DNA from: Escherichia coli
GTDB taxonomy: Bacteria > Pseudomonadota > Gammaproteobacteria > Enterobacterales > Enterobacteriaceae
NCBI RefSeq assembly: GCF_050320075.1
Contig: NZ_CP190018.1
DNA: 64,000 nucleotides
Direction: 5' to 3' (one strand)
Numbering within the stretch: the stretch's first letter is position 1; every line of letters starts with the position of its first letter. Of this stretch, positions 9,640-11,094 are shown one piece after another. Under the pieces are notes generated by a model that was not told the origin of the DNA, did not search any database, and saw only the letters and a program-made list of their open reading frames with translations. The position numbers and the translations under genes are program-made.

Positions 9640-9987
9640 ATGTTAGTTAGTAAAAGCAACGAAATTAACACTAGCACATTTATAAATAGTGGAAATTGCA
9701 ATGAAAGAAAATCCTCTAAATCCATGGAGTTACTAGCTTATAGTATTATAAAATTAATTTGTAAAGAAGCTGCCTCAGGGACGTATAACGGTGCTCTTGA
9801 AATTTTACAAAAAATGATGTCTGAATGTAAATATCATGAAGGCAATGCTTTTGTCATTATGGGAGCCGGAGAACAATTAAAACGTATTAAATATGATGCT
9901 AATGAAAATAAATTAAAAGTATACAACGTACACTTTGATAATAATCAAGAGTTAGTTGCTGATGGTGAGCCTGACGTAGTATTTTAA
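9640..9987 (+). CDS. hypothetical protein, 5' segment of ypjC-like ORF (ends at in-frame TAA)
   Basis: 115-aa ORF in very AT-rich DNA; Ser/Thr/Asn-rich N-terminus MLVSKSNEINTSTFINSGN; same frame as the following ORF. Confidence 0.4.
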   Translation: MLVSKSNEINTSTFINSGNCNERKSSKSMELLAYSIIKLICKEAASGTYNGALEILQKMMSECKYHEGNAFVIMGAGEQLKRIKYDANENKLKVYNVHFDNNQELVADGEPDVVF

Positions 9988-9996
9988 AAAAAAACG

Positions 9997-11094
9997 GTGT
10001 GGGAAGACCTTCTCGTTAAACTAAAGCTGGAGAACAAAGAAAATGCGGTTTCTGAAATTAACCTGTCATCTAATAAAAATAATGTTGATCAGTTTATTGA
10101 ATGCGCTAAGAGAAATGAACAGACCCTATTCGGCAATATAAGAAAAAGTGATTTTCATGTTGCTTCACTTCAGCCAGGTAGAACGCGTAGTGTTATTTCA
10201 GAAACGCCGCCAAATGACTGTATGGAATCACATAATTTATATGAAAACCACACAGATACGGTTTCAACTGTAACTAAAAATTCTCAGCAAGTTAAAGGTC
10301 ACTATGGAGATAAGTTGAAAGAAATGCAGTTGTTCCTCAACCAGATGAGCAATGCACTTCAACAGGATTCATCTTTGTTAGAGTCAAAGGAACACACCAT
10401 AGATATTCAAGAAAAAACGAATAAGTTTGTGCAGCATTTTCAGCGGGTATTATTTGATAAAAATGGAAGGTCATCAGAGTTTCTACTTAATTTTTATGAG
10501 TGTTGCTATAAGTTTTTACCAAGAGCGCAGCCTCAAGATAAAATCGATAGCTATAATTCAGCACTGCAAGCTTTTTCCATCTTTTGTTCATCTACGTTGA
10601 CACATAATAATGTAGGGTTTAATTTCAAATTATTTCCAGAAGTCAAGCTGTCTGGAGGAGAGCTTGAAACGGTATTCAAATACAAAAATGGTAATTTTGT
10701 CTGGGAGATAGCCAGAATTAAAATTACTCTCCCAAAAGAAGAGGGTGGTTTATATAATTTACGTGGATTGGATTTTAAGGGATGCTTCTTTTCTGGACAG
10801 AACTTCAGTAACTATGATATTCAATATGTGAACTGGGGAACGTCATTGTTTGATCTTGATACTCCATGTATTTTTAATGCGCCTGCTTACAACAAGAGTA
10901 ATGAAAAATCATTAGAACGCGTCAGCGAAAACGGTTTAAGTGGAGTCTTGTCTGATCGTAATAAAAAAATAAAACTAATCACGGGTGTGGCACCATTCGA
11001 TGATATTTTATTTATGGATGATGACTTTGATGATAACTCCCCTGATGATGGTCCCGTTGAGAATAGTCCTGTTGTGAATAGTCCCCTTGTATGA
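9997..11094 (+). CDS. hypothetical protein, 3' segment of ypjC-like ORF with pentapeptide-repeat-like stretch and acidic tail
   Basis: 365-aa ORF with GTG start 10 nt after the TAA at 9985-9987, same frame; NLRGLDFKGCFFSGQNFSNYDIQYVNWGTSL resembles pentapeptide repeats; C-terminus DDDFDDNSPDDGPVENSPVVNSPLV. Confidence 0.45.
   Translation: MWEDLLVKLKLENKENAVSEINLSSNKNNVDQFIECAKRNEQTLFGNIRKSDFHVASLQPGRTRSVISETPPNDCMESHNLYENHTDTVSTVTKNSQQVKGHYGDKLKEMQLFLNQMSNALQQDSSLLESKEHTIDIQEKTNKFVQHFQRVLFDKNGRSSEFLLNFYECCYKFLPRAQPQDKIDSYNSALQAFSIFCSSTLTHNNVGFNFKLFPEVKLSGGELETVFKYKNGNFVWEIARIKITLPKEEGGLYNLRGLDFKGCFFSGQNFSNYDIQYVNWGTSLFDLDTPCIFNAPAYNKSNEKSLERVSENGLSGVLSDRNKKIKLITGVAPFDDILFMDDDFDDNSPDDGPVENSPVVNSPLV

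Follow-up and report, generated by a model that had tools for sequence, protein, structure and literature searches.

A recent nonsense allele of ypjCB, a strain-variable accessory gene of Escherichia coli, at a homopolymer junction

A 64,000-nucleotide stretch of Escherichia coli DNA (contig NZ_CP190018.1; hereafter the window) contains two open reading frames (ORFs) that share one frame and lie on either side of a single TAA codon. Based on our analysis, the region is very probably ypjCB, a strain-variable accessory gene that has been inactivated here by one recent nonsense substitution. The YpjCB family is already catalogued in NCBIfam and Pfam (as DUF5507/DUF5508), the K-12 copy is a textbook pseudogene and this allele has been flagged in strain 042. 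The feature is an ordinary pseudogene, a recent nonsense allele of a known and frequently inactivated accessory gene, and it has little consequence for biology at large. Its value lies in three modest points. It exposes inconsistent annotation, as one allele is recorded either as two coding sequences (CDSs) or as a pseudogene. It is also a clean natural example, neat but minor, of a homopolymer junction that looks like a hotspot for one nonsense substitution and for insertions and deletions (indels). Lastly, YpjCB is an orphan seemingly limited to Escherichia/Shigella, with divergent mosaic alleles and intact in O157:H7 and O145.

The interrupted frame and its lesion

The combined frame opens with the ATG at 9640, 8 nt downstream of a Shine-Dalgarno sequence (GAGGA), and runs for 484 codons to the TGA at 11092-11094. 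The TAA at 9985-9987 is the sole separator of the ORFs at 9640-9987 and 9997-11094, both in frame 1. It stands in the context GTA TTT TAA AAA AAA ACG GTG, where T4 (9982-9985) is followed by A9 (9986-9994). The window has only five homopolymer runs of at least 8 bases, and A9 is one of them; the only other 9-base run is a T9 at 16931-16939, just 3' of the ypjA stop codon. The G+C content of the ypjCB region is 34.6%, against 49.2% for the window, and the gene is enclosed by an AT-rich stretch at about 6-12 kb. An earlier, sequence-only reading of this DNA had described an AT-rich coding region of two ORFs in one frame, split by a TAA within an A9 run, and the coordinates and composition agree with that description.

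A random 484-codon frame of the same base composition would be open with a probability of about 5e-18. Together with the end-to-end match to a curated family model, this places the ypjCB frame beyond chance. The NCBIfam model NF050179 (Ecoli_YpjCB) scores 957 bits against its curated cutoff of 650 bits, with residues 1-484 aligned on profile positions 1-465. The Pfam domains DUF5507 (PF17612) and DUF5508 (PF17621) match residues 1-160 (E=9.7e-75) and 234-484 (E=3.3e-147), respectively. At E<=1 the NCBIfam scan gave no family other than YpjCB, and at E<=10 the Pfam scan gave nothing besides these two domains except a spurious Ku_PK_bind match. The window gene is the orthologue of K-12 ypjC/ypjB, with which the earlier reading had suggested a comparison. 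The locus is ypjCB, a known but uncharacterised accessory gene of E. coli/Shigella, and the window copy is a pseudogene member of the YpjCB family, its reading frame being broken at codon 116.

The nature of the break is seen by comparison with strain EC16, in which ypjCB is a single intact 484-aa CDS (WP_001551528.1). Over 1,701 aligned bases EC16 and the window differ at two positions, 9699 and 9986, both of which fall within the 1,455 bases of the gene. At 9986 EC16 has T (TTA, Leu116) and the window has A (TAA), so that the ancestral T5A8 tract has become T4A9 with its total length unchanged. To judge from the aligned sequences, the lesion is a single T>A nonsense substitution and not a run-length indel. 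Orthologues that are single ORFs, as in EC16, bear out the earlier proposal of one gene split by a recent inactivation. The accompanying idea that the homopolymer makes the lesion revertible has to be given up: because the lesion is a substitution at constant length, run-length slippage cannot undo it and would shift the frame instead. Reversion needs an exact A>T change, which transient misalignment where the two runs meet might make somewhat more likely.

Translation from 9640 yields 115 residues before it stops within the DUF5507 domain. The remainder of DUF5507, the variable linker, the conserved DUF5508 core and an acidic tail all fall in the downstream fragment, whose GTG at 9997 begins 10 nt from the stop and has no Shine-Dalgarno sequence of its own in the upstream sequence inspected. 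This 365-codon frame would be translated at best weakly, by reinitiation, and the strain would be effectively ypjCB null. RefSeq marks the TAA allele as an 'internal stop' pseudogene in 042, AST85, ESBLEC_MG32 and Ec-U3. The RefSeq treatment is inconsistent, as the identical allele is entered as two CDSs in YZLc1-3 (NZ_CP123240.1) and as a single pseudogene elsewhere (NC_017626.1 and others).

Distribution, recurrence and constraint

The population sample comprised 5,426 complete E. coli genomes, searched for exact matches to 61-mers centred on the stop. The ypjCB locus is present in 3,080 of these genomes, always on the chromosome, and absent from 2,346. The TAA 61-mer occurs in seven (042, M00057, M11957, YZLc1-3, AST85, ESBLEC_MG32 and Ec-U3) and the TTA version in 465, so the stop is polymorphic across strains, which the sequence-only reading had proposed to look for. 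In a larger protein collection the exact 115-aa fragment was found on 191 contigs and the 365-aa fragment on 443, which argues against a sequencing artefact; the identical intact protein is on at least 1,000. The TAA allele genuinely exists, in a lineage that has been reasonably successful. The first 25 kb of the window match only Ec-U3 and YZLc1-3 at 99.9%, and these two are the only TAA carriers among the 30 closest backgrounds to that segment.

Within the gene, the TAA is found on at least four haplotypes, those of the window, M00057, 042 and AST85. The M00057 haplotype has 9 differences from the window type and an extra 1-bp deletion, the 042 haplotype has 45 differences, and that of AST85 is marked by a private 11-bp deletion. 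O158:H23, which is nearest to 042 (3 differences), has T at 9986 and a 1-bp deletion of its own. At the marker position 9922, 64 bp 5' of the stop, the window, M00057, 042 and AST85 haplotypes carry T, T, C and A, respectively. The tract is T5A8 in the intact alleles of EC16 and 118UI, and frameshifted variants at the same tract are T5A9 in strain 1190 and T5A7 in S1bESBLb. The T/A tract is confined to the window's allele family; other families read TGT TTA AGC AAG CAG.

On the simplest reading, the T/A tract looks like a mutational hotspot. The T>A change would have arisen by transient misalignment (dislocation) at the homopolymer junction: the primer would slip one base in the T run, copy the first template base of the A run and then realign. 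Base substitution by such misalignment was reportedly described by Kunkel and Soni in 1988. The model predicts exactly the change from T5A8 to T4A9, and a misalignment hotspot would explain T>A on several haplotypes as well as the +1 and -1 changes at the same tract. In E. coli mutation-accumulation experiments, base pairs adjoining runs are substitution hotspots, more so with longer runs (10.1101/346874). As in dislocation mutagenesis beside E. coli runs, the T>A change turns the base flanking A8 into the base of the run, and indels occur at the same tract. Unlike in those studies, the process would here be read from natural variation, and T5/A8 lies at the upper end of the run lengths in 10.1101/346874.

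Other lineages have lost the gene in other ways. The K-12 annotation gives its copy as a pseudogene with an internal stop, and the literature also counts ypjC/ypjB among the pseudogenes (PMC5811629, PMC6928379). The K-12 lesion is a TAG at codon 161, whose exact 61-mer is found in 1,232 genomes, whereas the CAG version is in 340. In isolate AF206 an IS1 (1114-1811 of the extracted locus, L013) breaks ypjCB at about codon 103; apart from the insertion, this allele and the 042 allele are 99.7% identical. Further frameshifts were seen in other copies. Given the K-12 TAG in 1,232 genomes and the IS1 insertion, ypjCB has been lost repeatedly. The window gene and K-12 ypjC/ypjB (b2650/b2649) are the same gene with the same position and domain architecture, each killed by a single nonsense codon. 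Their lesions are nevertheless independent (TAA at codon 116 and TAG at codon 161), and that of the window is much rarer and younger. The two allele families are about 80% identical in protein, and the K-12 family lacks 35 codons in-frame, a deletion it has in common with the intact O157/O145 alleles. The only phenotype found in the literature concerns K-12, where deletion of the ypjC fragment led to more pathogen colonisation of a commensal biofilm and constitutive expression was without effect (PMC3646849). This phenotype belongs to an already interrupted allele and reveals no mechanism.

Intact copies of 449, 484 and 492 residues are found in O157:H7, O145, urinary isolates and others, and the protein database holds many more, whose named sources are all E. 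coli or Shigella, to which the family seems to be confined. The 35-codon deletion (residues ~210-244 of the 484-aa form; window positions 10270-10374) defines an allele class that includes K-12, O145 and O157:H7 (loci L002, L016 and L017), of which the latter two retain an intact 449-aa version. At this base composition 5.3% of single substitutions create a stop, so that 100 random substitutions would add no stop with a probability of 0.004. Open frames nevertheless persist in alleles separated by more than 100 substitutions, and the frame has therefore been kept by selection in many lineages. Constraint on the amino acid sequence is weak, with pairwise dN/dS of 0.4-0.9 between alleles and a pooled pN/pS of 0.63 overall (0.45-0.82 by region).

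The alleles are mosaic, most of all at the 3' end. The window and 042 types are near-identical over the first ~600 bp and then diverge, with about 40 differences over the last 450 bp (10640-11094), and the block-wise alternatives NAPAYNKSNEKSL, NVPDDNKSYEKLL and NTPANHESYEKSL recur in varied combinations (loci L005, L008 and L011). The mosaic 3' third of ypjCB suggests intragenic recombination. On the IncHI2 plasmid NZ_MN732922.1 (L020, 3971-4363), a K-12-type ypjCB fragment of residues ~170-322 lies among repeated IS1 copies; it looks like a piece of chromosome picked up by IS1, and the plasmid is a conjugative one of 245 kb. Plasmid matches were accordingly rejected as divergent homologues, being mislabelled chromosomes and this one IS1-trapped fragment.

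Several points weigh against the interpretation of ypjCB as a gene recently inactivated at a mutational hotspot. The TAA need not have recurred independently, as recombination tracts of less than ~340 bp between flanking markers could move one TAA allele among haplotypes. Homopolymer sequencing or assembly errors could account for some of the run-length variants in other assemblies, and the misalignment mechanism is itself read from sequence context. There may be weak reinitiation at GTG 9997, and both fragments are RefSeq CDSs in YZLc1-3. Finally, with a pN/pS of 0.63 the intact gene is weakly constrained, and its loss may have little phenotypic effect.

The YpjCB protein and alternative readings

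The sequence-only reading had likened the gene to EspX-type effectors on the strength of a Ser/Thr/Asn-rich N-terminus, pentapeptide-like units and an acidic, Pro-rich tail. Both ends and the units NLRGL DFKGC FFSGQ NFSN are as it had quoted them: Ser, Thr and Asn account for 14 of the first 30 residues, and among the last 34 are 10 Asp/Glu and 5 Pro. The intact protein, in which no signal peptide or membrane segment is seen (maximum Kyte-Doolittle mean 0.87), is predicted to be soluble. From N- to C-terminus, the polar N-terminus is followed by an alpha/beta N-domain, a variable linker with the 35-residue indel, a conserved core ending in a short pentapeptide-like coil, and the acidic tail.

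That YpjCB is a type III-secreted, EspX-like pentapeptide-repeat effector, recently inactivated, is the alternative with the most behind it, and the sequence comparisons still leave it unlikely. The N-terminal composition together with the lack of a Sec signal or membrane segment is suggestive only, and an AT-rich gene in a tRNA-linked islet would suit such an effector. The pentapeptide-like units stand in part. Seven consecutive units occupy residues 372-406, a number reached in 0 of 20,000 shuffles (the next best of the 33 window ORFs has 4), and they are nearly invariant among alleles. The best PDB sequence match to a pentapeptide protein is a Qnr (3pss), which aligns to them at a non-significant E=0.24; just before them, LPKEEGGLYNLRGLDF is matched by a leucine-rich repeat (LRR) protein at E=0.07. 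However, seven units make under two helical turns, AlphaFold2 models this segment with low confidence (pLDDT 58-68 in the full-length model and 34-58 in the C-terminal-domain model), and the Pfam pentapeptide models (PF00805, PF13599 and related) gave no match at E<=10. The last of these is a weak test, as the control EspX1 itself reaches only E=0.15, with Pentapeptide_4, and the missing Pfam match is therefore not decisive.

The comparison with EspX itself is less favourable. Against Sakai (O157:H7) EspX1 (ECs_0025), YpjCB gave a best BLASTP E of 3.1 and an hhalign probability of 0.1%, and NCBIfam offers no family but YpjCB at E<=1. The pentapeptide region of NleL (EspX7), residues 171-371, folds into a complete beta-helix beside a HECT-like domain (PMC3013003), against 35 residues of pentads in YpjCB. 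The gene also occurs in K-12-type, urinary and other strains, with no obvious pathotype link in the sample. YpjCB shares with EspX, NleL and SopA an AT-rich and horizontally acquired gene, an unstructured polar N-terminus and a short stretch fitting A(D/N)(L/F)XX. It differs from them in having no detectable homology (EspX1 tested), in its few pentads where they have a full beta-helix of about 200 residues, and, from NleL and SopA, in having no HECT-like domain and no PDB sequence or fold match to either. The resemblance is limited to a short motif, and these searches do not support membership of the EspX family.

Searches for more remote relatives led back to the family itself. Among 1.84 billion cluster representatives, phmmer found only the YpjCB family and its fragments; one outlier (P0035, 2,688 aa) was rejected as compositional, being a repetitive low-complexity protein. 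Neither the protein nor the family profile found a meaningful sequence match in the PDB. The full-length AlphaFold2 model is unusable (mean pLDDT 38), and the model of residues 245-445 (pTM 0.63) predicts a helical bundle together with a meander of three strands (pLDDT 55-83). With Foldseek against the PDB and AFDB50, only E. coli YpjCB models matched; all others had TM<=0.23 and no beta-solenoid was found. Weak reverse-transcriptase/RNase H and hexokinase fold matches were rejected as noise. PADLOC gave no match, the one PHROGs match was a full-length family of unknown function, and there was no matching phage record. A promoter and terminator scan was uninformative, its counts being no higher than those of shuffles.

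A more speculative reading, which we regard as a long shot, holds that YpjCB is a secreted or contact-dependent protein whose C-terminal core of helical bundle, beta-meander and short pentapeptide-like coil is a new fold. The mosaic alleles, the high pN/pS and the repeated knock-outs, including T5A8 to T4A9, would in that case be the mark of fluctuating or antagonistic selection, through host or phage recognition for example, rather than simple neutral decay.

It is very unlikely that the T/A tract is a contingency switch and the TAA the reversible OFF phase of a phase-variable ypjCB. Three types of change (T4A9, T5A9 and T5A7) at one tract, a TAA on several haplotypes and the raised local mutation rates of runs would all fit such a switch, and like the homopolymer phase-variable genes of Neisseria and Haemophilus, ypjCB has a coding homopolymer with ON and OFF alleles in the population. 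Unlike in those genes, its OFF state in the window is a nonsense substitution that involves no change in length, from which slippage cannot restore the frame, and A8 is short for a classical contingency locus. The OFF variants are also rare (7 TAA against 465 TTA genomes), those of M00057 (1-bp deletion) and AST85 (11-bp deletion) carry further lesions that point to decay and not switching, and most allele families are without the tract.

Equally doubtful is a functional split gene, both halves of which are expressed and act together. The two halves are RefSeq CDSs in YZLc1-3, the 10-nt spacing between stop and GTG could permit termination-reinitiation, and the split allele is in hundreds of assemblies. 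Yet the stop falls within the DUF5507 domain (residues 1-160), the GTG is without a Shine-Dalgarno sequence, the allele is a small minority one base away from intact alleles, and in four other RefSeq genomes this allele carries a pseudogene flag. Programmed frameshifting was rejected as a rescue, since after +1 and -1 shifts at TTT TAA AAA stops are reached within 12 codons with no entry into the downstream ORF, which itself lies in frame 0. A natural two-gene arrangement is implausible here, and so is a frameshift-dependent recoding device.

Genomic surroundings

The gene order is glaH, an alpha-amylase-like gene, tRNA-Ile (ileY), ypjCB, a recombinase remnant and the ypjA/ehaD autotransporter (Table 1). 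The position of ypjCB between ileY and the pinH remnant/ypjA is common to YZLc1-3, K-12, EC16 and 042. Its AT-richness and this tRNA-associated islet with a recombinase remnant fit the horizontal acquisition that the sequence-only reading had suggested.

Table 1. Features of the ypjCB locus in window coordinates.
Feature	Position	Strand	Basis or comment
tRNA with CAT anticodon, RefSeq tRNA-Ile (ileY); 5' boundary of the AT-rich islet	8808..8883	+	
ypjCB pseudogene, 484-codon frame with one internal TAA	9640..11094	+	NCBIfam NF050179, Pfam DUF5507 + DUF5508
Upstream fragment ORF, 115 aa, cut off within DUF5507	9640..9987	+	RefSeq WP_016240636.1 in YZLc1-3
T4A9 tract, ancestral T5A8; apparently mutation-prone homopolymer junction	9982..9994	+	Run states across strains
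Premature TAA, codon 116	9985..9987	+	Base 9986 is A; T (TTA, Leu) in intact alleles; EC16 alignment
Downstream fragment ORF, 365 aa from GTG	9997..11094	+	RefSeq WP_072134768.1
Seven consecutive pentapeptide-like units YNLRG LDFKG CFFSG QNFSN YDIQY VNWGT SLFDL, residues 372-406	10753..10857	+	Periodicity test
pinH-like recombinase-family remnant, 3' of ypjCB	11476..11622	+	Coordinates transferred from the identical YZLc1-3 annotation (5977-6123)
ypjA/ehaD adhesin-like autotransporter, conserved downstream neighbour; outside the lesion	12029..16603	+	

The alpha-amylase-family ORF upstream of ileY (750 aa, 5996-8248, minus strand) is, at about 39% GC, a second strain-variable AT-rich gene of the ypjCB islet; it is intact in the window and in YZLc1-3 and an 'internal stop' pseudogene in K-12. 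In strain 118UI (L011, 1-393), an IS5 lies directly 5' of the intact ypjCB, where other strains have the tRNA-Ile.

Beyond ypjA, the interval 16600-28400 includes a P4-type primase-helicase gene (named from the annotation of its match) and a second AT-rich block (24000-27000, 33-36% GC). The tmRNA gene ssrA follows at 28467-28829 on the minus strand, ~12 kb past ypjA. We take the ypjA-ssrA interval to be, probably, an ssrA-associated integrative element analogous to CP4-57 of K-12.

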